A stretch of DNA of 64,000 nt from an uncultured Candidatus Saccharibacteria bacterium (lineage in GTDB: Bacteria; Patescibacteriota; Minisyncoccia; Phycocordibacterales; PALSA-1337): contig CAZBVQ010000001.1 of the NCBI GenBank assembly GCA_964495685.1, positions 169,521 through 233,520 of the forward strand, written 5' to 3'. Both the position numbers and the translations under genes were made by a program. Each line of letters starts with the position of its first letter. Within the stretch, counting starts at the first letter, position 1. The notes beneath the pieces are model-generated. The model worked only from the letters and a program-made list of their open reading frames with translations, searched no databases and was not told the DNA's origin. This document shows, one piece after another, positions 5,008-52,263 of this stretch.

Positions 5008-6872
5008 TGCCGTCACGTATGAATTTCCTCAACATTGTACTTATCGTGGTACTTGGTTTTTTCCTCATTATAGGTGTGTATGCCGAATTTGGTCGTTCGG
5101 ATACTGATTCGAGTCGGGTGTCTATCTCAGTCCTAGCTACTGATATCGAAAAAGGTCAGGTGTCACGTCTCAGCGTCAACGGCGATCAGGTCACCGCTGA
5201 ATATGTCGATGCATCTGTCAAAATTGCTCAGAAGGAATCAGACTCATCTCTTTCGGAGAGTCTCATACGTTTCGGTGTGACGCAGAAACAATTGGCTTCG
5301 ACGACTATTACCGTGAATGATCCTAGCGGACTAGGATATTGGCTCGGTCAGCTCGCACCATTCTTGGCACCCATCATCTTCCTCGTATTCTTCATCTGGA
5401 TCCTCTCGCGCCAAGTCAAAGGTGCTGGCGTCCAAGCACTCTCATTCGGTCAGTCCAAGGCGCGTATCACCATGCCTGATGACAAGAAGCAGAAGGTGAC
5501 GTTCAAGGATATCGCTGGCGCAAAAGAAGCCAAGCAAGAATTGTCGGAGATCGTGGACTTCCTGAAGAATCCGCGCAAGTTCATCGAGATTGGTGCAGAA
5601 ATCCCCAAGGGTGTGCTCCTCATGGGTGCACCAGGTACCGGTAAGACACTCCTTGCTCGCGCAGTTGCTGGCGAGGCAAATGTCGCATTCTTCTCCATTT
5701 CAGGATCTGAATTCGTCGAGATGTTCGTCGGTGTAGGAGCGTCTCGTGTTCGTGATCTATTCAAGATGGCCAAGGAGGCGGCGCCAGCTATTGTCTTCGT
5801 AGATGAAATTGATGCAGTCGGTCGTGCTCGTGGCTCTGGTATGGGTGGTGGCAATGACGAGCGTGAACAAACGCTCAACCAAATTCTAGTCGAAATGGAT
5901 GGTTTCGAACCCAATGAGAAGGTCATAGTCATGGCGGCCACCAACAGACCTGATGTGCTCGACCCAGCCCTGCTTCGTCCAGGACGTTTCGATCGTCGTG
6001 TCACTATCGATCTGCCTGACAGGGGAGATCGTCAGGAGATTCTCAAGATTCATGGTGCCAAGAAGCAGTTGGCTGAGGATGTGAATATTTCCGTTGTCGC
6101 TGAGCGTACCCCTGGATTCTCTGGTGCAGATCTGGCTTCGCTCATGAATGAAGCGGCAATCCTGGCTGCGCGTGAAGACCGCAAGAAGATAGGGCAGTTC
6201 GATCTGATCCGTTCTATCGAGAAGGTCATGCTCGGGCCTGAGCGCCGTAGTCACGTCTTGTCTGTACAAGAAAAAGAGATTACGGCATATCATGAGGCCG
6301 GTCACGCTATAGTCGCCTCAGTTCTTCCGCATGCTGATCCGGTGCACAAGATTTCTATCATCTCTCGTGGACGTGCTGCTGGGTATACCTTGAAATTACC
6401 GCTGGAAGATCGCAAGCTCCAGTCGCGTAAGGAGTTCCTCGATGATATCGCCGTTTCACTCGGCGGATATGTTGCGGAGCGTATGATATATGATGATTTC
6501 ACTACTGGTGCTTCAAATGACCTCCAAGTCTCTACTTCTTTGGCTCGCGCCATGGTTACGCAGTACGGTATGTCAGAGAAGATTGGTCCGGTGGCACTCG
6601 AGAGTCCAGCGGGTAAAGTACTCTTCGGTCAGGGAGTTTCAGATCGCGATTATTCAGAGAAGGTTGCTGCCGAAGTCGATGCTGAGGTTACGCGCATCAT
6701 GACCGAGGCACGCACTCTCGCTGAGCAGACACTCAAGGAGCATGAGAAAGCGTTTGAAGCAGTAACACAGAGGTTGGTCGAGAAGGAGACGGTTGAACGT
6801 GATGAATACGAGGCGATCATTGCTGCGCACGGGATTAAGATCAAGAAGAAGGAGGAGGTGAAAGTTGTGTAG
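5008..6872 (+). CDS. ftsH: ATP-dependent zinc metalloprotease FtsH (ORF opens at 4893; ATG at 5008 with RBS-like AAGGGGG is the more likely start)
   Basis: Walker [19 protein letters not shown] and AAA SRH region, with zinc site [12 protein letters not shown] helix and a second hydrophobic segment are present at the N-terminus. Confidence 0.95.
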
Positions 6873-6924: not shown

Positions 6925-7317
6925 ATGACTACGCGATATTTTTTTCAGTGTTGTAGAGAGTTGGTTAGTCTAAAGTGGAAAGTTGTGCTGAATCGCTCTG
7001 GTTACATATTTGTGTACAACTGGACCAACCGACTAATTGCTGATAGTACGGCATGTCTCCATCCCGCGGTTGCTGTTGCACTTGAAGTCAAAGGGTGTCG
7101 TCCTACCGGTCAGGCCGATATTGATGTTCCTGTTTCGATTAGCGTTCTCGCATTGCCAGCTGGTTTTGGTCCTCGATTAAATCAGGCTGTAGCTCGTGGA
7201 GAAGGACTTCCGAAGGATGCGATAGAAGTCAGAGAAGCGCTCTTGCACTATCTTGGTTCCCATAATCTCTACCAGCCGCCGCTCGACTCTATTCGAGGAG
7301 TGAAGATTATCGAATGA
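6925..7317 (+). CDS. Hypothetical protein (weak call)
   Basis: ORF 6865..7317 overlaps the ftsH stop. No motifs were found, and an internal ATG at 6925 is a possible start. Confidence 0.25.
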   Translation: MTTRYFFQCCRELVSLKWKVVLNRSGYIFVYNWTNRLIADSTACLHPAVAVALEVKGCRPTGQADIDVPVSISVLALPAGFGPRLNQAVARGEGLPKDAIEVREALLHYLGSHNLYQPPLDSIRGVKIIE

Positions 7318-7410
7318 CATTTCGTGGGTCTTGTCCTTAAGCGCGCCGGTGATGTTGGCGTGCTTTTTATTAGTTGTATCAATCTTCAGTTTATCCTATG
7401 ATGATGACAC

Positions 7411-7484
7411 CCGCCCCTAGCTCAGCTGGTTAGAGCATCGAGCTTATACCTCGAGGGTCCTTGGTTCGAGTCCAAGGGGGCGGA
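7411..7484 (+). tRNA. tRNA with anticodon UAU (tRNA-Ile2-like, reads AUA)
   Basis: Cloverleaf with acceptor CCGCCCC/GGGGCGG, D-arm GCTC-AGCTGGTTA-GAGC, anticodon arm TCGAG-CTTATAC-CTCGA, T-arm CTTGG-TTCGAGT-CCAAG and discriminator A. Confidence 0.7.
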
Positions 7485-7495
7485 CAAAATATAGG

Positions 7496-9961
7496 TTATT
7501 CAAAATGCGCCTCTTTTCCGTACTGCTCAGCCGCTTTCTTGAGTAGGGGATATTTGTTGAGCATCGCATCTTCACTTATTAATCTGATCGCCTCTGTTCG
7601 TGCCGCTTCGACCATCTTCAAATTTTTGAGTGCCTCCATGGCGACGTCGGAGACGCCCCATTGTCGTAGACCAGAAAGTTCGCCGGCACCACGTTGTGCG
7701 AGATCGAGCTCGGCCAGCTCGAAGCCATTCTTGGCAGTTTGGAGCGCCTTGAGACGCTCCAGGGATTTGGCGGAATTGGTTTCGGTGAATGCGTAACAAT
7801 ACGCTTGGTGACTACTGCGCATGACACGGCCGCGGAGCTGGTGGAGTTGTGAGAGGCCAAATCGTTCTGCACCTTCGATAATAATGACAGTGGCATTGGG
7901 TACATTGACGCCGACTTCGACGACTGAGGTGGCGCAGAGAATATCTATTTTTCCATTCTTGAAATCATCCATGACAGCATCTTTGTCTTCAGGTTTCATT
8001 TTGCTGTGGAGAATACCGATTTCGTAGTGCGGAAATACTGAACGTTTGAGGCGTTTTGCTTCTTCTTTGACTGACTTGGCGATGACGGCTGCCTCTTTGT
8101 CGGGATCTGGCTCATCGATACGTGGACAGATGACATAAAGTTGTCGACCAGCTTCGAGTTCGTGGCGGATTTTGGTATAAGTTTCGTCACGCTTATCAGG
8201 TCTAACAAGTTCGGTAATTATTGGCTTACGACCAGCAGGGGATTGATCGATGAGAGTAAGGTCGAGGTCGCCGTACATTGTTAATGCTAATGTGCGCGGA
8301 ATGGGTGTGGCGGTCATTGAAAGGAGATGTGGAGCGATAGTATCTTTGCGCACCAATTTCCTGCGCTGTGCGATACCGAAACGATGTTGCTCATCGATGA
8401 TGGCGTAAGCAAGATTTTTAAACTTGACTGACTTTTGAATAAGGGCATGTGTGCCTATAAGAACTGAAATGGAGCCTTCTTCAACCCACTTGAGAAGTTG
8501 CGAACGAGAAATATCGGTCCAACCCTTGGGGTTTACCTTGGAAGGAAATTTATAACAGCCGGAACCGGTGATGAGGCCAATCTGTATGGGCATGTAGGAG
8601 AAATATTTCACGAATGACTCGAATTGTTGGGTGGCGAGGATTTCGGTGGGGCACATGTAGGCGACTTGGAGTGGGCCACGGCGAAGAGCGTTTGTTACAA
8701 CCGCGACCTCAGAAGGAATACGGCTCTTGCCGACGCGCGTCAGGGCCTGCTGGCCCTGCGCTATGCTCGCGCCGTCGCGCTCCGCAGTGTCGGCTCGAAC
8801 CGATTCCTTCTGAGGTCGTGACGTCATGACGGCGTATGCGGTGGCTGCGGCAACGGCGGTCTTGCCGGAGCCGACATCTCCTTCGAGGAGGCGTGACATG
8901 GCAGAGCCGCGCTTCATGTCGGTCATAATGGCGTCGATGGCATGCTGTTGGGCATCGGTGGCGACGAAGGGGAAGCGGCGCACGAATTCACGGACATGCT
9001 CGATGTCGGTCTCAATGGTGAAAGCGGGATGCTTCTCATATTCGCGGCGAGCTTGCTGACGCGCGAGCTGGATCATAAATATTTCTTGGAATGAAAAACG
9101 TTTGCGCGCGGCGAGGGCGTCGTCATTATTCATGGGTGTATGAATCCAGATGAGAGCGGTTTTGAGGGTTGGTAGATGATATTTTTCGAGAATGTCGGCA
9201 GGAATGGGGTCGGCGAGCTGGTCGAGGATGCCACTCTTGAATACTTTTTGCAGAGAATGATACATCCAGAGAGAGGTGATGCCGCGGGATTCGCTGTAGA
9301 CGGGATAGAGATTGTGAGATGCACCCGTGTCGCCGAAGAGGGAGTCGCCGACGCCGGTAGGGAGTTTATCGACGAGTTCGAGTTTGGGGTTGGAGAAGTA
9401 GAGTTTTCCGGTAGCATTAGGGACAAGAGTCTCCTCACCCACGATCGACTCGGCTCGCACAACAGAACCGCTCGCCGAGTCGTCTTTTCTCAGCGTCGCC
9501 TGTAGCGGTATGTCTGTTCCTTGATTCCGCGACGCTTCCGAAGAGGGTTCGGAAACTCTGTCCCCAATGCCACCGCTCGCCGATTTCTTCGGTCTTCGTT
9601 CGCTGACTTTGCCTTCGATGCGTACGAGGGCCCCTTCGGGGGTCATCTTGGCGATGTAGGGCTGGTTGAACCAGGTACACTGGATGCGACCAGTCTCGTC
9701 TTCGACGTAGGCAGTGGCCATGGTTATTTTGGTGCGGAATCCTTTGCTGGCTTTGAGGCTGGTGATTTTGCCGTAGATGACGGCAGTGTCACCTTTCTTG
9801 AGTGAGTCGATGGAGCGTGCCTCAGCAGTGTCGCCGTAGCGGACAGGGAAATGATAGAGCAAATCTTCGACGGTATGAACGCTGAGCTTCTTGAGCGCGG
9901 CCTTCTGGATGGGGGTGATGCGGAAGTATTCAGAGACGGGTATGTCGGGAGTGAGGGGCAT
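7496..9961 (-). CDS. recG: ATP-dependent DNA helicase RecG (ORF extends to 10012; likely start MPLTPDIP at ~9961)
   Basis: N-terminus L..L.GVG....KL..LGI.TV.DLL.H.P.RY-like, Walker A GDVGSGKTAVAA, DEQHRFG, MTATPIPRTLALT. An in-frame insert of about 39 aa is encoded by a palindromic element at 8704..8818. Confidence 0.9.
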   Translation of the reverse strand: MPLTPDIPVSEYFRITPIQKAALKKLSVHTVEDLLYHFPVRYGDTAEARSIDSLKKGDTAVIYGKITSLKASKGFRTKITMATAYVEDETGRIQCTWFNQPYIAKMTPEGALVRIEGKVSERRPKKSASGGIGDRVSEPSSEASRNQGTDIPLQATLRKDDSASGSVVRAESIVGEETLVPNATGKLYFSNPKLELVDKLPTGVGDSLFGDTGASHNLYPVYSESRGITSLWMYHSLQKVFKSGILDQLADPIPADILEKYHLPTLKTALIWIHTPMNNDDALAARKRFSFQEIFMIQLARQQARREYEKHPAFTIETDIEHVREFVRRFPFVATDAQQHAIDAIMTDMKRGSAMSRLLEGDVGSGKTAVAAATAYAVMTSRPQKESVRADTAERDGASIAQGQQALTRVGKSRIPSEVAVVTNALRRGPLQVAYMCPTEILATQQFESFVKYFSYMPIQIGLITGSGCYKFPSKVNPKGWTDISRSQLLKWVEEGSISVLIGTHALIQKSVKFKNLAYAIIDEQHRFGIAQRRKLVRKDTIAPHLLSMTATPIPRTLALTMYGDLDLTLIDQSPAGRKPIITELVRPDKRDETYTKIRHELEAGRQLYVICPRIDEPDPDKEAAVIAKSVKEEAKRLKRSVFPHYEIGILHSKMKPEDKDAVMDDFKNGKIDILCATSVVEVGVNVPNATVIIIEGAERFGLSQLHQLRGRVMRSSHQAYCYAFTETNSAKSLERLKALQTAKNGFELAELDLAQRGAGELSGLRQWGVSDVAMEALKNLKMVEAARTEAIRLISEDAMLNKYPLLKKAAEQYGKEAHFE
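8704..8818. repeat. Intragenic GC-rich palindromic element (family A) with 16 nt terminal inverted repeats CGACCTCAGAAGGAAT, in frame within recG
   Basis: The perfect TIRs bracket a core CGAGCATAGCGCAGGGCCAGCAGGCCCTGACGCGCGTCGG that is shared with the element in comF. Local GC is much higher than the flanking sequence, and spurious ORFs appear on both strands (8614..8829, 8624..8821). Confidence 0.75.
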
Positions 9962-12763: not shown

Positions 12764-12848
12764 GGAGAGATGGGTGAGTGGTTTAAACCAGCGGTTTACT
12801 AAACCGCCGACCTGCAAAGGTCCGCGAGTTCGAATCTCGCTCTCTCCG
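12764..12848 (+). tRNA. Class II (Ser-type, G73) tRNA with apparent anticodon ACU (unusual)
   Basis: GGAGAGA acceptor, D-arm, anticodon arm GCGGT-TTACTAA-ACCGC, 18 nt variable arm, T-arm GAG-TTCGAAT-CTC, discriminator G. The anticodon positions 34-36 read ACT. Confidence 0.6.
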
Positions 12849-12989
12849 CAGACGTTAGTTAGTCAATCGCTTAGAGAAAGGTGTCAAGTGGCACGAAACA
12901 AATTATATTTTGCATGGTATGATGACTACAAGTTCTGAGTAAGAAATGCTCTAAATTTAAAAACCTATTTTATCTAACATAAAACTAAT

Positions 12990-40534: not shown

Positions 40535-42205
40535 ATGTCCATCCAAGACGGCAAAGTATTCCTGTATATATCCAAGCGCAAGAACGCTTTTGTTGTCGGC
40601 GTACTCCTTACCATCCAGCTCATCCTTTCGGTTATTCTGTCTATCTCACTTGCGGGCAACCTCATTTGGCCCGAACAAAGCTCAGCTGCAGCAGGATCAC
40701 CCATGAAGATCGCATACGAAGGACGTCTGACGGATAGTTCTGGGAATGCACTCGGTGGTGCAGGCACGGTGTATTGCTATCGTTTCTCGATATATGATGC
40801 CTCGACTGCGGGGAACAAACTCTGGCCGGGAGGCACTCCATCCAATACGACTGCGACGACGACCGACGGAGTCTTCAATGCCGTCATCGGGCAAGCAGAC
40901 ACTCTTTCTTCGACCGTATTCGATTTCTCGACGACATCGACTGCGTATCTCCAAGTTGAAGTCAACACGACGACATCTACGTGTGGTGGATCGTGGGAGG
41001 CACTATTGCCGCGTCAGCAGGTCCTCTCATCAGGATATGCTATGCAATCTGCAAATGTGTACGGCTCCCTCCTTAAGACGGATACCGTCAACAACTGGGT
41101 ACAAGTCGGTGCTGGCGGGCAGGCCAATCCGATCGAGCTCGTCCTCGATGCCAATAATTCCACATCGGATTACGTTGGTCAGACGTGTTCAACCGTCGGT
41201 GCTATGTGGTACAACACGGTCACGACACAGGCGCTCATCTGCGTCAATGGTGTCGTAGAGTCTCTCGGCAATAGCGGTTCGACGACCATCGCTGCAGTCC
41301 AGACCAACAGCAATACACCTATCAGCAATGGTACGGTCGTATTCTCGAACTCCAACGGCGTGACCTTCGGTAACAACGCAGGCACGATCACGGCGAGTGT
41401 CAATGCGGCTGGTGCGGCATTGAGTAGCTATGCCAATGCCCTGTACAAGCTAAACAGCCAGACGCAACAAGGACTCGTCAGTACATTTGTAGTGTTTCCC
41501 TTCGTGTTGAGTGGTAATGTCTCTTTTGACTACTTACGTATTTTGAACAGTGTATCGATAGCTTCAACATCATTTGCGTCGACGGCCAACACGACATATT
41601 CTTACAACCAGGCCATCTCATTTAGAGGGGTACTTTATTCAAAGAATGTAGGTGCTAGCTCTATGTCGCTTGCCTCTGTCAGTACATTCTCGGCCGGCAT
41701 GACTTATAGCCTGAACGCGGCTTATGGCTCTGCAACGAACACGAGCCAGATCCTTACCATGGGTATAACGTATCCGATCTCGACGGGTACTTCATCATTC
41801 ACGACGGTATATAACACCAGCAACCTTTCGACCCAGGCATTGAGTACGACCAACTTTACTCGTCTTACCGGCTTCAAGTTCATGGATTTTCCATTCGCTG
41901 GGTCACTCTCAGCAGGTGACTATTGGCTAGCACTCAACGCATCGACGACCCAGACCACACAAGCAGTGGCTGCACTTTCTGCAGTACGCCTACTCTTCTC
42001 AACTATTGGTATGTCACAGGTAAATAACACTTATGCTTATTTCGGTAACTTTAATACAGGATCAGTACAGGCACAGCGTGGTGTCGGTAGTTTCACCACA
42101 GTGGGTGGTGCGTCGACGGGATCGATGGGCTTCTCCAACATTTCTTCTTCTGCCTCTCACCCAATACCGTACCTCACGTTGCAGATGAGTAACTATGCAC
42201 AGTAG
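40535..42205 (+). CDS. Large membrane-anchored beta-rich surface protein, function unknown
   Basis: N-terminal TM helix followed by about 500 aa rich in S/T/N/G/A. Confidence 0.55.
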   Translation: MSIQDGKVFLYISKRKNAFVVGVLLTIQLILSVILSISLAGNLIWPEQSSAAAGSPMKIAYEGRLTDSSGNALGGAGTVYCYRFSIYDASTAGNKLWPGGTPSNTTATTTDGVFNAVIGQADTLSSTVFDFSTTSTAYLQVEVNTTTSTCGGSWEALLPRQQVLSSGYAMQSANVYGSLLKTDTVNNWVQVGAGGQANPIELVLDANNSTSDYVGQTCSTVGAMWYNTVTTQALICVNGVVESLGNSGSTTIAAVQTNSNTPISNGTVVFSNSNGVTFGNNAGTITASVNAAGAALSSYANALYKLNSQTQQGLVSTFVVFPFVLSGNVSFDYLRILNSVSIASTSFASTANTTYSYNQAISFRGVLYSKNVGASSMSLASVSTFSAGMTYSLNAAYGSATNTSQILTMGITYPISTGTSSFTTVYNTSNLSTQALSTTNFTRLTGFKFMDFPFAGSLSAGDYWLALNASTTQTTQAVAALSAVRLLFSTIGMSQVNNTYAYFGNFNTGSVQAQRGVGSFTTVGGASTGSMGFSNISSSASHPIPYLTLQMSNYAQ

Positions 42206-45002: not shown

Positions 45003-45021
45003 ACACGTACACACGTGTCCC

Positions 45022-45108
45022 CGCACCTCCTCATTCCTTCCTGACAAGCCGAAAATGTAGCCAGCGATCAGCGCTTTGAGGCTTGGAGGGGAGGAATGAG
45101 GACGTGCG
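45022..45108. repeat. 87 nt palindromic intergenic repeat (family B, copy 1)
   Basis: CGCACCTCCTCATTCC...GGAGGAATGAGGACGTGCG with inverted termini. Nearly identical to the copy at 46584..46670. Confidence 0.8.
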
Positions 45109-45164
45109 AGGACGAGCTCCGACAAGTAAACAAATAGAGATAAACGAAGTCTCTGCTATAATAG

Positions 45165-46559
45165 ATGGCAATGAAATCGAGATTGACTCTCGCGGTCGCT
45201 TTTGTCCTGTTGTTTATATGCGCAGGCTCGCTTGGCATGTTTTGGTCCGAGAATGTCGGGGCTGTCGATGCCTCCTCGACAAGCTTTTTTGTTCGTCAAA
45301 ATATCCTGCCCGTGGGCTCCAATAGTTATCCAGGTTCGACTGGTGCGGAACCGTTTTCGACGTCTACATCATTCAAGCTGGTCGGTGCAGGTAGCGAAAC
45401 GGCTGTAGGAACATCCACCTCTTCATCATTTGGTGTCATGGGCGGATTCTTGCGCAGTCTGTACTTCGGTCCAGCGCCACTCTACAATCAGATACATTAT
45501 CATTGGCGCAACGACGATGGCTCAGAGGCGGCGGCTACATCAAAAACAAGTGGTACACCTGATACGGACATTACGTCCTTGGCAAAATCGACCACAGTGC
45601 GTCTGCGCATTGAGATCTCGAATGAAGGCGGTACGAAGCTCGGGTACGCTTCCCAGCAGTTTCGTCTCGAATATGGTCTCAAGTCGACTACGTGCGCGGC
45701 TATAGTCTCGTGGACTGACGTCGGTGCTGCATCTGGAGATTGGGATCCATCGAATTCGAGCAACTTGACTGACGGAAATGACACGACCAATATTGCCGTA
45801 TCTACGGGCGGTGTCGCTGATGAAAATCATACGTTTCTCACCCCGAATGGTGGGGCCAAGGATACGGGTAGTCAGACTGCTGCTGTCAGTGTGACGAGTG
45901 AGCAGTTTATCGAATTGGAATACTCAATTCAGGCCCTATCGGCCGCAACTGATGGGGGAACGTATTGTTTCCGTGTGACGAATGCAGGTGGAGCGACTAC
46001 TCTCTACTCATATACTGCGTATCCACAGGCAACACTCGCATCTTCTGGGGGATACTTATATTTTTCACTCGATGGATCTACAGAGGCCTTCGGTAACATT
46101 ACTCCAGCTGTGCTAGCGGCGACTTCGAGTATTTTGACGGCGAGGACAGACAATTCGACTGGTTTCAATATAACTATTCAGCGAGCAGATTCTACAGGCA
46201 CCATGTCTTCTGGCTCGGTGTATATTCCTGACAAGACTGCATGGGTCCCGGGCGTGAATACGTCATCTGCAGGTAACGCAACAGCTTCGACTACTGAGCC
46301 GCAGACGTTGCAATTTCGTATACGTAATACAGGTACCGATGCGGCCAACTACTCATCTGCATGGTGGGGAACAGACGATACGACAGCCTCTGCCTTGTTC
46401 GCGGGTATCCCATCTACGGCTAGGAATATCGTCGACAGGTCGAGCTCTGCGGTCTCTACTACGACAGCATACGTCTTGTACAACTTGACTGTGCCAGTAA
46501 CTCAGCAAGCGGGCAGTTATTCGGGTAGTATTACCTATACAATTACAGCGAACCCTTGA
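45165..46559 (+). CDS. Secreted Thr/Ser-rich surface protein with C-terminal WxL-like domain
   Basis: Signal peptide. C-terminus AWWGTDD...GSYSGSITYTITANP resembles the WxL-domain C-terminal consensus, and the C-terminal half is paralogous to 46775..47470. Confidence 0.55.
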   Translation: MAMKSRLTLAVAFVLLFICAGSLGMFWSENVGAVDASSTSFFVRQNILPVGSNSYPGSTGAEPFSTSTSFKLVGAGSETAVGTSTSSSFGVMGGFLRSLYFGPAPLYNQIHYHWRNDDGSEAAATSKTSGTPDTDITSLAKSTTVRLRIEISNEGGTKLGYASQQFRLEYGLKSTTCAAIVSWTDVGAASGDWDPSNSSNLTDGNDTTNIAVSTGGVADENHTFLTPNGGAKDTGSQTAAVSVTSEQFIELEYSIQALSAATDGGTYCFRVTNAGGATTLYSYTAYPQATLASSGGYLYFSLDGSTEAFGNITPAVLAATSSILTARTDNSTGFNITIQRADSTGTMSSGSVYIPDKTAWVPGVNTSSAGNATASTTEPQTLQFRIRNTGTDAANYSSAWWGTDDTTASALFAGIPSTARNIVDRSSSAVSTTTAYVLYNLTVPVTQQAGSYSGSITYTITANP

Positions 46560-46583
46560 TGTGGATAACCCGGGGCATACCCC

Positions 46584-46670
46584 CGCACGTCCTCATTCAT
46601 TCCTGACAAGCCGAAAATGTAGCCAGCGATCAGCGCTTTGAGGCTTGGAGGGGAGGAATGAGGACGTGCG
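46584..46670. repeat. 87 nt palindromic intergenic repeat (family B, copy 2)
   Basis: Same orientation as copy 1, and the two copies bracket gene 45165..46559. Flanked by GTGGATAA on both sides. Confidence 0.8.
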
Positions 46671-46774
46671 GGGATACGTGTGGATAAGTGCCTAGGTCTG
46701 TTACGTGATATAATAGAAGAACTGAAATTAGGTTACGTAGTATAATTATTAGTATCGTTTAGTATATCCACATT

Positions 46775-47470
46775 ATGAGGCCAATCACATATACCATGAG
46801 CCAGAAGACGAAAGAGCGTCTTCAGACATTCGGTAGTGCGTTCGTTATCACGGCGATGCTCTTTTACTCAGTCATCTATGCAGTACAGGTGCATGCCAAC
46901 GCGGTGAGTTTGACTGCTACGATTCAGACAGCTATCACATTCACGACATCATCGAATGTATTCGGTAACGTGACTCCGGGTACTATCTCGTGGGCAACGA
47001 CTACACTTGATGTGGCCACCAACGATACCAATGGCTGGCTCGTCACTCTCTCTGGTGACAACAAGACGTCAGTCAATAATAACTTACAGACTGCTGGCAA
47101 CACGGCCTCTATCACTGATCAGACAGAGTGGGTACCTGGTGCCGCTACGACGACTACTGGCAATGCCGTCGTTCGTGCCTCGCTTGCCAACTCAGGCAAC
47201 GTGCTCGCGTTCCGAGTCATGACAGCCTCGAGTAGCAACGGCACTCCGTTTACGGCAAGTAGCTGGTGGGGAACTACTGACGCAGATGGTACGGCGAAAT
47301 GGGCAGGTATTGCCAGCTCGACAGTCGCACGTACTATCGGCAACGCAGGTACTGGTTCTTATAGCGCAAGCAACCACTTGAATACAGTCCAATACTACTT
47401 GCTCGTATCGGCCACGCAGGCATCAGGTGCATATACTGCTCCCTTGACATATACTGCTACGGCGAACTAA
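46775..47470 (+). CDS. Small secreted WxL-like domain protein (paralog of 45165..46559 C-terminal half)
   Basis: SSWWGTTD...GAYTAPLTYTATAN C-terminus and an N-terminal signal peptide. Confidence 0.55.
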   Translation: MRPITYTMSQKTKERLQTFGSAFVITAMLFYSVIYAVQVHANAVSLTATIQTAITFTTSSNVFGNVTPGTISWATTTLDVATNDTNGWLVTLSGDNKTSVNNNLQTAGNTASITDQTEWVPGAATTTTGNAVVRASLANSGNVLAFRVMTASSSNGTPFTASSWWGTTDADGTAKWAGIASSTVARTIGNAGTGSYSASNHLNTVQYYLLVSATQASGAYTAPLTYTATAN

Positions 47471-47479
47471 ACTCCCCTT

Positions 47480-48412
47480 ATGAGATCCCGCCCCTCTTTT
47501 ATCGGCATCTGGACCGCCAGTGTTCTGGCGGTTTCAGCTATGCTGATCGGCGGGATACACTACGCACAAGCTGGTACTGGTCTCACGATACAGCCGATCA
47601 AGGTATCTCAAACTATGAAGCCAGGCGATCAGACTTCTGGCACGATTCGACTTTCCAATGCGAGTGATGAAGATGTTGTGGTCGAACTTTCGGTCCAGGA
47701 TTTCATTCCTGTTGCTGGTGCCGAAACATTCCAATTCGTTAGTCGTGCTCCAGGTGTGACGACTGTCCGTGACTGGATTACTTTTAATGATAAGAAGAAT
47801 TCATTCACATTCAAGCGGGGTGAGATCAAAGAAATTCCCTATGAAATAAAAGCACCACTCAATGCTGAGCCGGGCAGTCATTTCGGTGTACTTTTTTTCA
47901 AGGCAATAAAAGAGTCAGAAGCTCATTCCCAACTGAGGATTGGTACCCAGGTCGGCGTACTCGTTTTCGTTACCATTCCTGGTAAATTTGAGCAGAAGGG
48001 AACTATCAAGGGATTCGAAACCAAATCATTCTACCAAACCGCCCCCGTTTCTTTTGTGATGGAATTCGAAAATCAAGGGACGGTTCATTTCGAGCCAAAG
48101 GGTACCATTGATATCACCAACATGTTCGGGTCCAAGGTGGGATCTGTCCCTATAGAAGGCTATGCTGTTTTGCCGACGGGCGTCAAAAAGATGTCCTTCA
48201 GCTGGAATGTTGCTGGATTTCTGCTCGGCAAATACAGTGCCACGGCATCAGTGTATGATGTTGATGGCAATCTACTCTCGAAGGCATCTGCATCGTTTTG
48301 GGTCGTCCCTGTCTGGTACATAGTATCCTTCATTGTCATACTCCTTGTTCTATTCTTCGTCATTAGGTTTATCAAGAAACGTCTGAAATTCAGTATTAGT
48401 CTCAAGAAATAA
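47480..48412 (+). CDS. Cell-surface protein resembling DUF916/DUF3324 (CscA-like), with C-terminal TM anchor and basic tail
   Basis: Signal peptide, beta-rich ectodomain (GLTIQPIKVSQTMKPGDQTSGTIRLSNASDEDVVVELSV...GSHFGVLFFK), C-terminal TM helix plus KKRLKFSISLKK. Confidence 0.5.
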   Translation: MRSRPSFIGIWTASVLAVSAMLIGGIHYAQAGTGLTIQPIKVSQTMKPGDQTSGTIRLSNASDEDVVVELSVQDFIPVAGAETFQFVSRAPGVTTVRDWITFNDKKNSFTFKRGEIKEIPYEIKAPLNAEPGSHFGVLFFKAIKESEAHSQLRIGTQVGVLVFVTIPGKFEQKGTIKGFETKSFYQTAPVSFVMEFENQGTVHFEPKGTIDITNMFGSKVGSVPIEGYAVLPTGVKKMSFSWNVAGFLLGKYSATASVYDVDGNLLSKASASFWVVPVWYIVSFIVILLVLFFVIRFIKKRLKFSISLKK

Positions 48413-48426
48413 ACCTTGCACCATGA

Positions 48427-49935
48427 ATGAAAAAACTGGCCATCCTCATTGTTATAGGCGCCGTTCTCATTCCGCTCGGTCTCTACGCCAATAGTTTTAA
48501 CCTTACGGTCAGAATCTGTCAGGGGATAGATTGTGGCGACGAAACTCAGCCGTCTACGCCGACCAGCTTGTCAGTAACTGCGGTGACCGATTCGCAGGTC
48601 AATCTGGCATGGGATGCCTCGATTGATCCTGGTTCACCAGCATCGGGCATCATGTGGTATGCCGTATATCGCAATGGCAGTGTATCTCCTGTGGGTACAA
48701 CGACCGGCACCTCATATTCAGATACTGGACTGACCGAGGCGACTTCGTATACGTATACAGTGAGCGCACTCGACAATGCGTACAACGAGAGTGCGCAGAG
48801 TTCAAGTGTCTCGACAACTACACTCCTCACGCACCCTGAGATACCCAATCCTTCCAATGGTTCGCCGACGTCGCAACTTGCGGCAGGCACCACACAGACC
48901 ACGATGTCGCTCGACACGGATATAGCTGCCACGTGTCGATATGGCACTACTGCTGATACGGCATATGCGAGTCTACCCGATACGTTTTCTACTACGGGCG
49001 GAACATCGCATTCGACTGTTATTACTGGCCTTTCAAACGGGACCAATCGTACATTCTATGTGCGATGTCAGAGCTCGTATGGGGTACCGATGACGACTGA
49101 TTATATTATTTCGTTCTCCATCGCTTCGTCGGCAGGATCAAATGGCGGAGGGGGCGGCGGAGGTGGAGGGGGAGGCGGTGGTGCTGCAGGAGCCACGACC
49201 CCGATCAATCCGGTGAATGTGATCGTTCGCGGGGTGGCGTATCCGGGCAGTCACGTCAATCTCCTCAAAGATGGTCAACTTGCAGCTAGTACTCAGGCGG
49301 GACCTGACGCACGTTTCGAGATACAACTCTCTGGGGTGAGTAATGGCACGTATACATTCAGTGTGTGGGCGTCTGACAAGAATGGGGTACGATCGACGTT
49401 GTTCCCTTTCACTGTCACCCTTACATCAGGTGCAACGACGGTCATTAGTGGAGTCTTCATCGCACCGACAGTGAGTGTTGATTATGACACGATCAAGCGA
49501 GGTGACCCGCTTCACGTCATCGGTCAATCAGCGCCCAAGGCGACTGTTTCGGTCATATTCCATTCGGATACCGAAATTATTGAAGATGTGGCTACAGATC
49601 TCGATGGTATATGGACGTATGCCCTAGACACACTTCGCCTGGAGTATGGTGACCATACAGCTCAAGCTCGCTCAAAAAAAGAAAAAGATCTAAGTACACT
49701 CTCGAAAGCTATTACATTCAAAGTCGGTACACAGAGTATTGCCGCCAAGAAAGCACTAGGGTCGTTGAAGGGGGATCTCAATGGAGATGGCCGTGTCGAT
49801 CTAGCCGACTTCAGTATCATGTTGTATTGGTACAAGAGGACGCTCACGGCAAAAGCACCAACAGTCGATATGAATAATGACGGCAAAGTCGATTTGGTCG
49901 ATTTTAGTATCTTCGCGTTCAATTGGACAGGATAA
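48427..49935 (+). CDS. Secreted FN3-domain protein with poly-Gly linker, Ig-like domains and C-terminal dockerin-like module
   Basis: The FN3 region runs LSVTAVTDSQVNLAWDAS...YTYTVSALD. A 20-Gly run follows. The C-terminus carries two dockerin Ca-binding repeats: DLNGDGRVDLADFSIM and DMNNDGKVDLVDFSIF. Confidence 0.7.
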   Translation: MKKLAILIVIGAVLIPLGLYANSFNLTVRICQGIDCGDETQPSTPTSLSVTAVTDSQVNLAWDASIDPGSPASGIMWYAVYRNGSVSPVGTTTGTSYSDTGLTEATSYTYTVSALDNAYNESAQSSSVSTTTLLTHPEIPNPSNGSPTSQLAAGTTQTTMSLDTDIAATCRYGTTADTAYASLPDTFSTTGGTSHSTVITGLSNGTNRTFYVRCQSSYGVPMTTDYIISFSIASSAGSNGGGGGGGGGGGGGAAGATTPINPVNVIVRGVAYPGSHVNLLKDGQLAASTQAGPDARFEIQLSGVSNGTYTFSVWASDKNGVRSTLFPFTVTLTSGATTVISGVFIAPTVSVDYDTIKRGDPLHVIGQSAPKATVSVIFHSDTEIIEDVATDLDGIWTYALDTLRLEYGDHTAQARSKKEKDLSTLSKAITFKVGTQSIAAKKALGSLKGDLNGDGRVDLADFSIMLYWYKRTLTAKAPTVDMNNDGKVDLVDFSIFAFNWTG

Positions 49936-50858
49936 TGCCTATGATATTTTCCCGAAAAAGCATACGTATATGTACTCGAGCACTTTCCATCATTGTGGTG
50001 GCATTCCTGCCGCACGTCTTGCATGCGGCGAGTATTCAGTTCGACGGGTCGAGTCATACTGTCGGGACCAATTCACCATTCTTAGTACACCTGACTATTG
50101 ATTCCGATACGCCTGTCAATGCCATACGAGTTGTCATCGACATTCCTGAATATACCGATGTGGTCGACGTCTCAGACGGTAATTCTGTCATCAATATGTG
50201 GATAGAACGTCCGCATCTTATATCGCCGAGGCAGCTCGTATTCGCTGGTATTGTTCCGGGAGGATTCAAGGGCATTCGCGGTACACTGATCACCTTCGCG
50301 GCAAAGTCCTTCAAGGAGGGCAAGGGAAGTTTCATCGTCAATGCCTCGTCTCGGGTGTATGCCAATGATGAACATGCTACGCCGCAGACGATTACGTCTC
50401 GACCACTCGATCTCGCTTTCGTGAATGGTCGCGACAATGTAATAACAATTACCCCAGATCGCGCACCTCCCGAACCATTCAAGCCTATCCTGGTCAAGAT
50501 GCCAGATGGGGATGTGGGGAGTTGGGCGGTATCATTCGAGACGCAAGACAAAGACTCAGGGATTGCCTCGTATTCAGTAGTCGAGTCGGTCTCTAGGCAT
50601 GCCATCGATGCCACTGACACCATGCTGCGATTACCGTGGCGCGAAGTCGAAAGTCCGTACATTCTGGCTGATCAGCAGCTGCAATCATACGTCTATATCA
50701 AAGCGACTGACGTGATGGGTAACAGTCGTTTCGGATACATCGCACCCATCCACGGTCTTTCATGGTATCGAACGCCTGGAGGGTATATACTTATAGCGTT
50801 ACTCATTTTCACTGCGCTCTATGTCATCGCTCGTCGCCTACATGTGGTCACGCGTTAG
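49923..50858 (+). CDS. Membrane-anchored cohesin-like domain protein
   Basis: Signal peptide, then a beta-sandwich region with cohesin-like pattern (SIQFDGSSHTVGTNSPFLVHLTIDSD...VINMWIERP...GTLITFAAKSFKEG), and a C-terminal TM anchor. Confidence 0.5.
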   Translation: MDRIMPMIFSRKSIRICTRALSIIVVAFLPHVLHAASIQFDGSSHTVGTNSPFLVHLTIDSDTPVNAIRVVIDIPEYTDVVDVSDGNSVINMWIERPHLISPRQLVFAGIVPGGFKGIRGTLITFAAKSFKEGKGSFIVNASSRVYANDEHATPQTITSRPLDLAFVNGRDNVITITPDRAPPEPFKPILVKMPDGDVGSWAVSFETQDKDSGIASYSVVESVSRHAIDATDTMLRLPWREVESPYILADQQLQSYVYIKATDVMGNSRFGYIAPIHGLSWYRTPGGYILIALLIFTALYVIARRLHVVTR

Positions 50859-52263
50859 ACGCTCTCGCTGGGCGTCGGTTGTAATGGTTGTGGCCATTTT
50901 TCTTGTATATAGCCATGCGGTATCGGCTGCCACACTATCAGTCGTGCCACTAGGTGGATCGACCTACAGTGTCGGGCAACTTTTTTCTGTTGCCGTCATG
51001 GCGGGCGCCTCTGACGCTAGCCCGCTCAATGCGGTCTCTGGTGTATTGTCATACCCGACCAACGTGCTCCAAGTAGTATCGGTCGACAAGGGTGGCAGTA
51101 TCATCAATTTCTGGATAAGTGAACCAGCATATAGCAACGCCTCGGGTCGCGCACAGTTCGAGGGGGGAGTCTACAATCCTGGATTCGCTGGTGCCCAAGG
51201 TAAGGTGGTCACCTATCTTTTCAAAGTCAAAGCCGCAGGATCTGCCGACATTGGTTTTGCCACGGCGTCTATCCTCGCTAATGATGGACAGGGTACCAAT
51301 ATTCTCGAGCGCACGATTCCAGCGCGTCTTGTACTGACTGCTGGATCGTCTGACGAAACATCAGTGCCTGATTCGGTCGTGCCGATTCCTGGTGTGGCTA
51401 TACGTTCTGGTACACATCCAGATCAGAGCGCCTGGTACAATTCGACGATGGTGGCTCTGGCCTGGGATCTCCCTACGGGTGCGATGGCGGTGCGTACGGG
51501 TCTCGACCAGAGTATTCGTTCGAATCCGACGACGCTCGCCCCATCTCTTATTTCCGAGACGACATTCAATGTCGGTGAGGGCACGTGGTATTTCCATGTA
51601 CAGATCAAGGATGTACAAGGGTGGGGTCCGGTGTCTACGTTCAGGATCAATGTCGATACTACAGCGGTCAACCCTCCGGTTTTCGACAGATTCCCAGCTA
51701 TCCTGACCGAAGGAGAAGTTCTCTTGATATCGGGTATCGCGCCGAAGAATGCGTTGGTCACGCTCACGTTGGGGGACTCGCATGGTGAGAAACAGCAACA
51801 GTCTGCCAAAGCGGGTGATGATGGTAGATTCCAAGCAGTGTGGCAGCGTGAGTTGGGGAGTGATTCATATACCTTGAATGCGGAGGCGGTCAGTAGTAGA
51901 GGGATCAAAAGTTCTCGCAGTCAGGATATGGTCATCACAGTTCAGCCGACAGCGCTCCAGCGTGTAGCTCGTCCGGCACTCAACTACGCGACCATGTTTG
52001 CACTCGTCGCTGGTCTCATATTCCTGTGCGTTCTCTGGACCTGGTATCTGATCCAGCATTTCCGTCATTTCCGCAAGAAAGTACGTGCTGATGTGAAGCG
52101 CGCCAATCAGCTCATTCATGTCGAATTCAAGAAAGTGCTCGATCAAGCACGCGGCAAGCGTCGCCTGACCGCTGAGGAGGAGCGCATGCTCTCAATGATC
52201 CGTGAAGGTATCCATGACATCGAAGAGGAAGTGGAGAAAGATGTCCGCGAGATAGGGCAGTGA
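50821..52263 (+). CDS. Membrane-anchored cohesin-like domain protein (paralog of upstream gene) with C-terminal TM and cytoplasmic coiled tail
   Basis: TLSVVPLGGSTYSVGQLFSVAV...VLSYPTNVLQVVSVDKGGSII...GKVVTYLFKVKAAGSADIGF matches the cohesin family pattern. A C-terminal TM helix follows. Confidence 0.55.
   Translation: MSSLVAYMWSRVRRSRWASVVMVVAIFLVYSHAVSAATLSVVPLGGSTYSVGQLFSVAVMAGASDASPLNAVSGVLSYPTNVLQVVSVDKGGSIINFWISEPAYSNASGRAQFEGGVYNPGFAGAQGKVVTYLFKVKAAGSADIGFATASILANDGQGTNILERTIPARLVLTAGSSDETSVPDSVVPIPGVAIRSGTHPDQSAWYNSTMVALAWDLPTGAMAVRTGLDQSIRSNPTTLAPSLISETTFNVGEGTWYFHVQIKDVQGWGPVSTFRINVDTTAVNPPVFDRFPAILTEGEVLLISGIAPKNALVTLTLGDSHGEKQQQSAKAGDDGRFQAVWQRELGSDSYTLNAEAVSSRGIKSSRSQDMVITVQPTALQRVARPALNYATMFALVAGLIFLCVLWTWYLIQHFRHFRKKVRADVKRANQLIHVEFKKVLDQARGKRRLTAEEERMLSMIREGIHDIEEEVEKDVREIGQ

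Follow-up and report, generated by a model that had tools for sequence, protein, structure and literature searches.

Known systems and the locus under study

Two described surface systems lie closest to a three-gene locus (genes A, B and C) found in a 64,000-nucleotide (nt) stretch of DNA recorded as from an uncultured Candidatus Saccharibacteria bacterium (contig CAZBVQ010000001.1, positions 169,521 to 233,520). Here ‘the window’ refers to this whole stretch. One of the two systems is the Pam pilus of bacteria of the candidate phyla radiation (CPR), which have no outer membrane (10.64898/2026.03.03.709456). Pam filaments of the saccharibacterium Ca. Mycosynbacter amalyticus, with structures determined by cryo-electron microscopy, consist of PamA and PamB (listed as 25PZ and 25QA in the supplement of the same preprint). 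Each subunit has a nine-strand β-sandwich N-terminal domain, a linker strand, and a truncated immunoglobulin (Ig)-like C-terminal domain that accepts the linker strand of a neighbor. PamC and PamD are PapD/FimC-like chaperones with a C-terminal transmembrane helix, unlike Gram-negative ones. Accessory proteins are the tip pilin PamT and PamR, an RbmA-like anchor with a transmembrane segment, and ATP synthase genes lie nearby. Pam pilins were found mainly in Saccharimonadia and Microgenomatia, and the preprint mentions neither Parcubacteria nor WxL nor DUF916 (10.64898/2026.03.03.709456).

The other system is the WxL (csc-type) cluster of Lactobacillales and Listeria, which encodes a small WxL protein, a large WxL protein, and WxLIP (PMC10599100, PMC1534035). 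AlphaFold2 predicts that a strand of the WxLIP DUF916 hairpin inserts into WxL (PMC10599100). In the literature searched, nothing pairs DUF916 with Patescibacteria, and WxL and chaperone-usher systems occur together only in general works, a review of surface-colonization proteins and a secretome-prediction study.

We propose that A, B, and C constitute an usher-less, chaperone-assisted surface-fiber module of the Pam-pilus/WxL-cluster kind in a single-membrane Parcubacteria bacterium, with a probability of about 0.6. In our best reading, the module is a divergent and unannotated variant of the Pam-type system that is widespread in Parcubacteria. The three genes are adjacent and co-directional, as follows.

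45165-46559, plus strand: gene A (464 aa), large secreted subunit, called as an open reading frame with a hydrophobic N-terminus taken as a signal peptide
46050-46556, plus strand: pilin-type C-terminal domain of A (about residues 296-464), located by BLASTP against B (E 4e-17)
46775-47470, plus strand: gene B (231 aa), small and highly conserved subunit, supported by the open reading frame, its relatives, and a match to NF058581
47480-48412, plus strand: gene C (310 aa), membrane-tethered two-domain chaperone-like WxLIP homologue (DUF916, DUF3324, and transmembrane parts), from profiles, hhalign, and Foldseek
47576-47983, plus strand: domain 1 of C, a DUF916-like β-sandwich (residues 33-168), from the AlphaFold2 model and from hhalign and hidden Markov model alignments to the WxLIP DUF916 domain
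47993-48307, plus strand: domain 2 of C, a DUF3324-like β-sandwich (residues 172-276), from the AlphaFold2 model and the hhalign alignment of superfamily and WxLIP (query 30-263)
48311-48412, plus strand: transmembrane helix of C (residues 278-301) and basic tail RFIKKRLKFSISLKK, from the AlphaFold2 helix and a hydrophobic stretch at 269-304

Gene C is a WxLIP homologue

Gene C is the sole open reading frame of the WxLIP-like kind in the window. Judging from sequence profiles and a structure model, its product is a WxLIP homologue with a PapD-like chaperone architecture, because both the profile comparisons and the top structural matches lead to WxLIPs. When the profile of the C superfamily was aligned by hhalign with nine real Firmicutes WxLIPs, the match was 99.07% (E 1.4e-18) over 229 columns and both domains; the narrow C family alone gave 94.4%, in the first domain. 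As an unrelated control, the B family gave 2.6% against the same WxLIPs, with only signal peptides aligned. The nine WxLIPs were taken from Listeria, Enterococcus, Lactococcus, Lactiplantibacillus, Levilactobacillus, Latilactobacillus, and Melissococcus plasmid records, and an E. faecium contig with many frameshifts (L052) was left out of the WxL comparison.

The superfamily is large. An exhaustive HMMER search with the C family profile found 11,527 cluster representatives (clusters at 50% identity) at E ≤ 1e-3, and 124 sequences were drawn as a sample from the best 150 representatives, all with E ≤ 1e-42. The profile of these 124 sequences matches the solved WxLIP1 of E. faecium (EfmWxLIP1; 9i25_C, 9i1y_A) at E 7.4e-9. 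When the PDB was searched by sequence, only this diversified superfamily profile (A3) reached WxLIP; the single proteins A, B, and C and the profiles A1, A2, and A4 found nothing meaningful there.

With Pfam models, the result depends on the model and on the breadth of the sample. C alone scores 15.4 bits (E 0.02) on PF06030 (WxLIP_PGBD, formerly DUF916), below the gathering score of 27.3, whereas PF06030 matches 26 of the 44 close relatives of C and 89 of the 124 superfamily sequences (best E 4.9e-11). PF11797 (DUF3324) matches only one of the 124. Thus, of the two Pfam models named as a check in the original prediction, the first bears out the assignment at the level of the superfamily, and the second hardly responds. 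The assignment of C itself to the DUF916/DUF3324 type holds, by hhalign, by the EfmWxLIP1 match, and by structure. No Pam chaperone model of NCBIfam matched the C family.

The predicted architecture of C is likewise upheld. A hydrophobic signal lies at residues 5-26, followed in the AlphaFold2 model (predicted local distance difference test score, 84.8) by two β-sandwich domains at residues 35-166 and 174-275, the transmembrane helix, and the basic tail. A Foldseek search of the PDB with this model returned the WxLIPs 9i1y and 9i25 on top (E ~1e-10), and next the chaperones CfaA (E 4.9e-10) and Caf1M, FimC, and CsuC (~1e-8 to 1e-7).

The most conserved element of C is a long hairpin that ends domain 1 (strands 132-144 and 155-166, motif AEPGSHFGVxFFKA). 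hhalign pairs it with its counterpart in WxLIP (consensus MPxxxFxGxxLGGL), and its position is that of the F1-G1 donor hairpin of PapD-like chaperones. This hairpin is a candidate donor strand.

Separately, four superfamily members (P0254, P0257, P0273, and P0309) have 500-800 aa and two or three matched stretches each, that is, tandem or fused chaperone-like units.

The C-terminal domain shared by A and B

A consists of a signal peptide, a variable N-terminal part (residues ~34-295), and the conserved pilin-type C-terminal domain. B consists of a long signal peptide (residues 1-41, ending VHA), an extension (residues 42-53), and the pilin-type domain (residues 54-231). Residues 305-463 of A align with 59-231 of B at 31% identity (composition-adjusted BLASTP, E 4e-17), and the domain is conserved in hundreds of relatives. 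The two proteins are therefore paralogous in this domain, as had been predicted, and their C-terminal endings were quoted correctly as GSYSGSITYTITANP and APLTYTATAN. The length of the common domain had been put at about 70 aa, which falls well short of the actual ~165 aa.

Thr, Ser, and Ala abound in both proteins (Thr makes up 18.6% of B), and an artefact of this low-complexity composition was considered. Composition does not explain the similarity, because the E value of 4e-17 is composition-adjusted. Moreover, the invariant columns include residues other than Thr and Ser (W, D, R, G, Q, and Y), and the gene order described below recurs in 47 species. A meaningless cluster with an artefactual A/B similarity is thus refuted, and we give it practically no credence.

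The two subunits differ in how they vary. For B, 358 relatives were found (56-84% identity), and the mean column identity of this family is 60%. The gene at the A position encodes, in 30 species, proteins from 352 to >1,700 aa whose N-terminal parts are unrelated; what is conserved is the C-terminal domain, with a mean column identity of 51% among the 30. One example has a C-terminal domain of 41% identity (E 6e-25) beside a Gly-rich N-terminus. A is hence a putative tip or adhesin subunit, and B is a putative major fiber subunit. In the extension of B, AVSLTATIQT, hydrophobic residues alternate and AITFTTSS follows; V44, L46, and V50 are nearly invariant in the B-family alignment. The AlphaFold2 monomer model of B (score 79) leaves residues 42-53 unpaired, and this segment is a second candidate donor strand, besides the hairpin of C.

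As judged from profile matches, the shared domain is related to the Pam pilin domain. The model NF058581 (CPR_Pam_pilin_C) scores 22 bits on B (E 1.3e-4), where the match spans positions 3-147 of its 148, and it also recognizes 39/40 B-family members (best E 2e-7) and 27/30 large-subunit domains (best E 3.7e-6). These matches are statistically significant and consistent, yet all of them stay under the curated 55-bit cut-off of the model. Reciprocally, it matches none of ten real WxL proteins. Another Pam model, NF058579 (PamT), gives weak matches to two of the 40 B-family members (best E 6.7e-5) and three of the 30 large-subunit domains (best E 0.32). In Foldseek, the best matches of the B model are weak and almost all donor-strand-complemented filament subunits, in a list with FimF/FimG, CfaB, FimA, the PapG pilin domain, PapA, Caf1, TasA, and archaeal cannulae. 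We infer that A and B each end in an Ig-like fold that is incomplete and needs a β-strand from a partner.

On the other hand, the shared domain is not detectably a WxL domain. PF13731 (WxL), another suggested check, matches neither A nor B in the Pfam scan, only 1/40 B-family members (E 0.064), and 0/30 large-subunit domains. A profile comparison, also suggested, was negative too: when ten real small WxL proteins were the target, hhalign reached 0.3% with the B family and 2.45% with the large-subunit domains, and the merged 70-sequence profile against 13 WxL domains gave 1.0%. A local WxL hidden Markov model had zero matches within the window, and the WxL chain of 9i25 is outside the top 50 Foldseek matches of the B model.

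What resemblance there is lies mostly at the C-terminal end. The hhalign alignment of the A/B domain with WxL is confined to the last ~25 columns, L.VP....Y...(I/L)T(Y/W)....P. A greedy alignment is collinear further upstream (SLTF with L.ID..F, and TN..GW.VT with D.RG..GW.LSV), although it is statistically unsupported. We regard this resemblance, which is what the original prediction had picked up, as a lead, not as evidence of membership. Real WxL proteins have GWxL as the first motif and LTWxLxDTP, C-terminally, as the second. At the site collinear with the first motif, B has Trp (NGWLVTL, GWLV) and A has Phe (GFNI); at the site of the second Trp, both have Tyr (LTYTA and ITYTI). The A/B domain thus lacks the dual Trp-x-Leu motif. 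The hallmark Trp positions had been described as substituted, which is accurate for the second site in both proteins and for the first site in A, but B keeps the first Trp.

Incidentally, the NCBIfam model NF053819 (EF0750_LPXTG) matches 7/10 small WxL proteins of the Firmicutes clusters L053-L059 (best E 8.2e-7). Where matches were tabulated protein by protein, in one case, the matched part is the N-terminal signal and Pro-rich region. Several of these clusters contain small LPXTG proteins.

Conserved gene order and host lineage

Related genomes were scanned for synteny, which had been named as a further check, using one genome per GTDB species and the profile A1. This yielded 47 loci, and fractions were counted only among loci with enough flanking DNA. 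A B-like gene is directly upstream of C at 38/39 loci; further upstream, 31/34 have another gene whose product ends in the shared domain. The order of a large variable subunit, a conserved small subunit, and a chaperone is thus recurrent in Parcubacteria. At one locus (L003), A-B-C stands in a different genomic context without the downstream genes D, E, and F described below; A-B-C is therefore the core.

Two loci have additional copies. L036 has B-like genes (5214-5840 and 6961-7587) on both sides of the chaperone gene, and L030 has a second, very divergent C-like paralogue (729-1577, 26% identity) a few kb upstream. Duplication of the module therefore occurs.

Relatives of B and C come exclusively from metagenome-assembled genomes of the Parcubacteria group, including Kaiser-, Taylor-, Adler-, Sung-, Ryan-, Azam-, and Portnoybacteria as well as Paceibacterota. 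Where the sources name them at all, they are labeled ‘hypothetical protein’. The window also contains prfB, ftsE, ftsX, CTP synthase, tRNA, and transfer-messenger RNA genes, and it is therefore chromosomal DNA.

The operon also occurs at 50-65% identity in many metagenome-assembled genome records titled ‘uncultured Candidatus Saccharibacteria bacterium’ (L007, L008, L013, and others). Their synteny is the same as that of Taylor- and Kaiserbacteria genomes; the title looks generic and should not be taken to indicate Saccharimonadia.

Genes D, E, and F

Three genes follow C on the same strand.

48427-49935, plus strand: gene D, secreted protein with fibronectin type III and bacterial Ig domains and a C-terminal dockerin, from Pfam
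49923-50858, plus strand: gene E, with an N-terminal cohesin-like domain and a C-terminal transmembrane anchor (residues 284-309), from paralogy with F and the Cohesin matches of the family
50821-52263, plus strand: gene F, with cohesin and Ig-like domains, a transmembrane segment (residues 385-414), and a charged cytoplasmic tail, from a near-threshold match to Pfam Cohesin

At the related loci, downstream genes like D, E, and F are present at 32/37, 26/34, and 28/31, respectively. D matches fn3 (31.0 bits), Big_6 (28.9), and Dockerin_1 (30.2, gathering score 22.9), all three above their gathering scores. The N-terminal domains of E and F are paralogous. Pfam Cohesin matches 20/36 such domains (best E 8.6e-11), and F of the window scores 21.1 bits (E 3.8e-4), just below the gathering score of 24.1; the profile of these domains matches the cohesins of cellulosomal scaffoldins 5m2o and 5aoz at E 0.002-0.003. 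Both halves of a cohesin-dockerin pair were thus found, PF00404 on D and PF00963 on its putative E/F partners. NCBIfam scanning of D, E, and F gave no Pam-family match. The gene ends overlap by 13 nt (D/E) and 38 nt (E/F), which suggests translational coupling.

Comparison with known systems

The locus shares with the Pam system a single-membrane CPR host, subunits with predicted Sec export, and genes in one operon that encodes no usher or dedicated envelope-spanning machine. The pilin domain of its subunits matches NF058581 over the full length, though below the naming cut-off, and C, as a two-β-sandwich PapD-like chaperone with a C-terminal transmembrane helix, corresponds to PamC and PamD as the preprint describes them. 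It differs in several respects. The host lineage is Parcubacteria. B has one domain (a strand and the C-terminal domain) instead of the series of N-terminal domain, linker, and C-terminal domain; only A has two parts, the N-terminal one being hypervariable. There is one chaperone instead of two, no equivalent of PamR, PamT, or PamE was recognized at this operon, and dockerin and cohesin genes follow.

With the WxL clusters, the locus has in common a C protein homologous to WxLIP over both domains and sharing its C-terminal transmembrane helix, a large and a small protein with a common C-terminal domain, and a predicted strand-insertion mechanism. The gene order matches those of Listeria (L053) and E. 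faecalis (L054), a likeness of architecture only, as the shared domain is not detectably WxL and has Tyr-Thr-x in place of the second Trp-x-Leu. Also different are the host, which is a CPR bacterium and not a Firmicute, the score of C below the PF06030 gathering score, and an operon without LPXTG or sortase partners. The likeness to WxL clusters asserted at the outset therefore stands for the WxLIP homologue, the composition, and the gene order, but not for the shared domain. The claim that the system is undescribed fares similarly: the Pam pilus was described in the 2026 preprint, while the present Parcubacteria family lies below naming cut-offs and goes by ‘hypothetical protein’.

To chaperone-usher pili (Fim, Pap, CFA/I, Caf1, and Csu), the locus is linked by the chaperone fold of C, by the weak likeness of the B model to FimF/G, CfaB, and FimA, and by an adhesin with an extra N-terminal domain beside a one-domain subunit with an N-terminal extension, comparable to FimH and FimA. 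In contrast to them, it belongs to a CPR host, a group without an outer membrane, it has no usher, and C is membrane-anchored instead of soluble. No usher was matched when the genes called between 35366 and 54974 were scanned with Pfam and NCBIfam, and HMMER searches found no sequence similarity of A, B, or C to chaperone-usher pilins or chaperones. With cohesin-dockerin scaffolds of the cellulosome type, the common points are the type I dockerin of D and the cohesin domains and membrane anchors of E and F; unlike there, glycoside hydrolases are absent here and the scaffold-like genes are coupled to a pilus-like module.

Proposed mechanism and rival explanations

PapD/FimC-type chaperones lend a strand to subunits. 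A similar course can be proposed for the present locus. A, B, and C would all be exported by Sec, and the pilin-type domains of A and B would take a β-strand from a partner. C, held in the membrane by its C-terminal helix, would cap subunits on their export with a strand of its own, probably one of the long, conserved hairpin that ends the DUF916-like domain. Subunits would then join by donor-strand exchange. B may polymerize via its N-terminal strand into the shaft, given its small size, its very high conservation, and the alternation of hydrophobic residues in its N-terminal extension. A may be the distal adhesin, because its N-terminal part is wholly different between species. The base of the fiber would be tethered via C and perhaps also via D, E, and F, in which the dockerin of D and the membrane-anchored cohesins of E and F probably form a scaffold that works with the fiber or anchors it.

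Several observations weigh against a Pam-like fiber. A itself reaches only E 0.15 on NF058581, and every NF058581 match is below the NCBI naming cut-off of 55 bits. Foldseek finds only weak matches for the B model (best E 5e-3, TM-scores of ~0.3-0.5), and the AlphaFold2 models cover B and C as monomers. RbmA, which is a matrix scaffold and not a chaperone, is also high among the Foldseek matches of C. No PamR- or PamT-like protein was recognized, and the window has no F1 ATP-synthase signature motifs, though ATP synthase genes typically neighbor pam operons. Finally, the closest solved relative of C is WxLIP, and the WxLIP system is, to our knowledge, not one that forms filaments.

In a different explanation, C holds A and B in stable 1:1 strand-insertion complexes at the surface, as proposed for WxLIP and WxL in Lactobacillales, and A acts as a binding protein with no pilus being formed. 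WxLIP is indeed nearest to C by sequence and by structure, the order of large, small, and WxLIP-like genes is that of real Listeria and Enterococcus clusters, and WxL clusters most often combine a single WxLIP with a small and a large protein that have a C-terminal domain in common (PMC10599100). The collinear motifs L.ID..F, GW.L, and C-terminal L.VP...Y..LT[W/Y]...P would fit as well. However, the shared domain fails every statistical WxL test (PF13731 1/40 and 0/30, hhalign ≤2.45%), the 9i25 WxL chain is not in the top 50 Foldseek matches of the B model, and the model that does match the domain is that of the Pam pilin, which matches 0/10 real WxL proteins. The very high conservation of B and of its N-terminal extension also fits a self-assembling subunit better than a passive surface protein. 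We consider such a non-polymerizing complex the main rival, though clearly less likely than the fiber. Distinctly improbable is that the six genes form a cohesin-dockerin (cellulosome-like) or S-layer-like scaffold, to which A, B, and C would be accessory Ig-fold proteins without chaperone-subunit chemistry. The dockerin of D above its gathering score, the cohesin matches in 20/36 E/F domains (best E 8.6e-11), and the retention of D, E, and F downstream in most species speak for a scaffold of this sort, but the A-B-C core occurs without them at L003, and a scaffold would not account for the specific likeness that C bears to chaperones and WxLIP, and A and B to pilin domains.

If the usher-less fiber module is the correct reading, it is a candidate attachment organelle, conserved in 47 species-level genomes, and its hypervariable tip protein could set host specificity. 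Parcubacteria are abundant, uncultured, and ultrasmall bacteria whose presumed way of life is attachment to other cells. C, being homologous to the WxLIP of enterococci, listeriae, and lactobacilli, connects CPR Pam pili with WxL virulence and adhesion clusters, which have been treated separately until now, through a chaperone superfamily of ~11,500 clusters. The link is a hint that both work by strand complementation, as Gram-negative chaperone-usher pili do, but with no usher. At their present cut-offs, Pfam and NCBIfam overlook this large family.

More tentatively, and as a possibility that we would not yet bet on, the WxL clusters of Firmicutes, the Pam pili of Saccharimonadia and Microgenomatia, and this Parcubacteria operon might belong to one ancient usher-less donor-strand system of single-membrane bacteria. 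In that case, the WxL domain would be an incomplete Ig fold of the pilin type that has diverged, WxLIP would act in assembly as a genuine PapD-like chaperone, and short fibers might be formed by WxL proteins too. With 11,527 clusters at 50% identity, the system would then be among the most widespread surface-assembly systems of monoderms, most of it unannotated.

Palindromic element and other features of the window

A palindromic element occurs in two direct copies, which bracket gene A and are the only two in the window.

45019-45112, strand not assigned: upstream copy, ~94 nt, found as direct repeat D1 (97% identical to the other copy) and forming a hairpin
46581-46674, strand not assigned: downstream copy, in the A-B intergenic gap, with an RNA fold of -65.3 kcal/mol (z = -8.1)

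The element is absent from the related loci, and it is therefore not a conserved regulatory part of the module. It could be an insertion resembling a miniature inverted-repeat transposable element, a terminator or RNA stabilizer, or a site where recombination exchanges the gene for the variable large subunit.

Upstream of the locus, 40535-42205 encodes a Ser/Thr-rich protein of 556 aa, with a weak match to the NCBIfam model Bdello_MAT_N (mosaic adhesive trimer fiber) at E 3e-5, below the cut-off. A close relative (L001) has a 540-aa gene at the corresponding position, a positional match that does not imply homology. A ‘tail fibre-like protein’ is a typical neighbor of pam operons (10.64898/2026.03.03.709456).

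Among the tRNA genes, ARAGORN reports a tRNA-Ser with anticodon ACT at 12764-12849 and a tRNA-Ile with anticodon TAT at 7411-7485. A34 in a Ser tRNA is unusual in bacteria.

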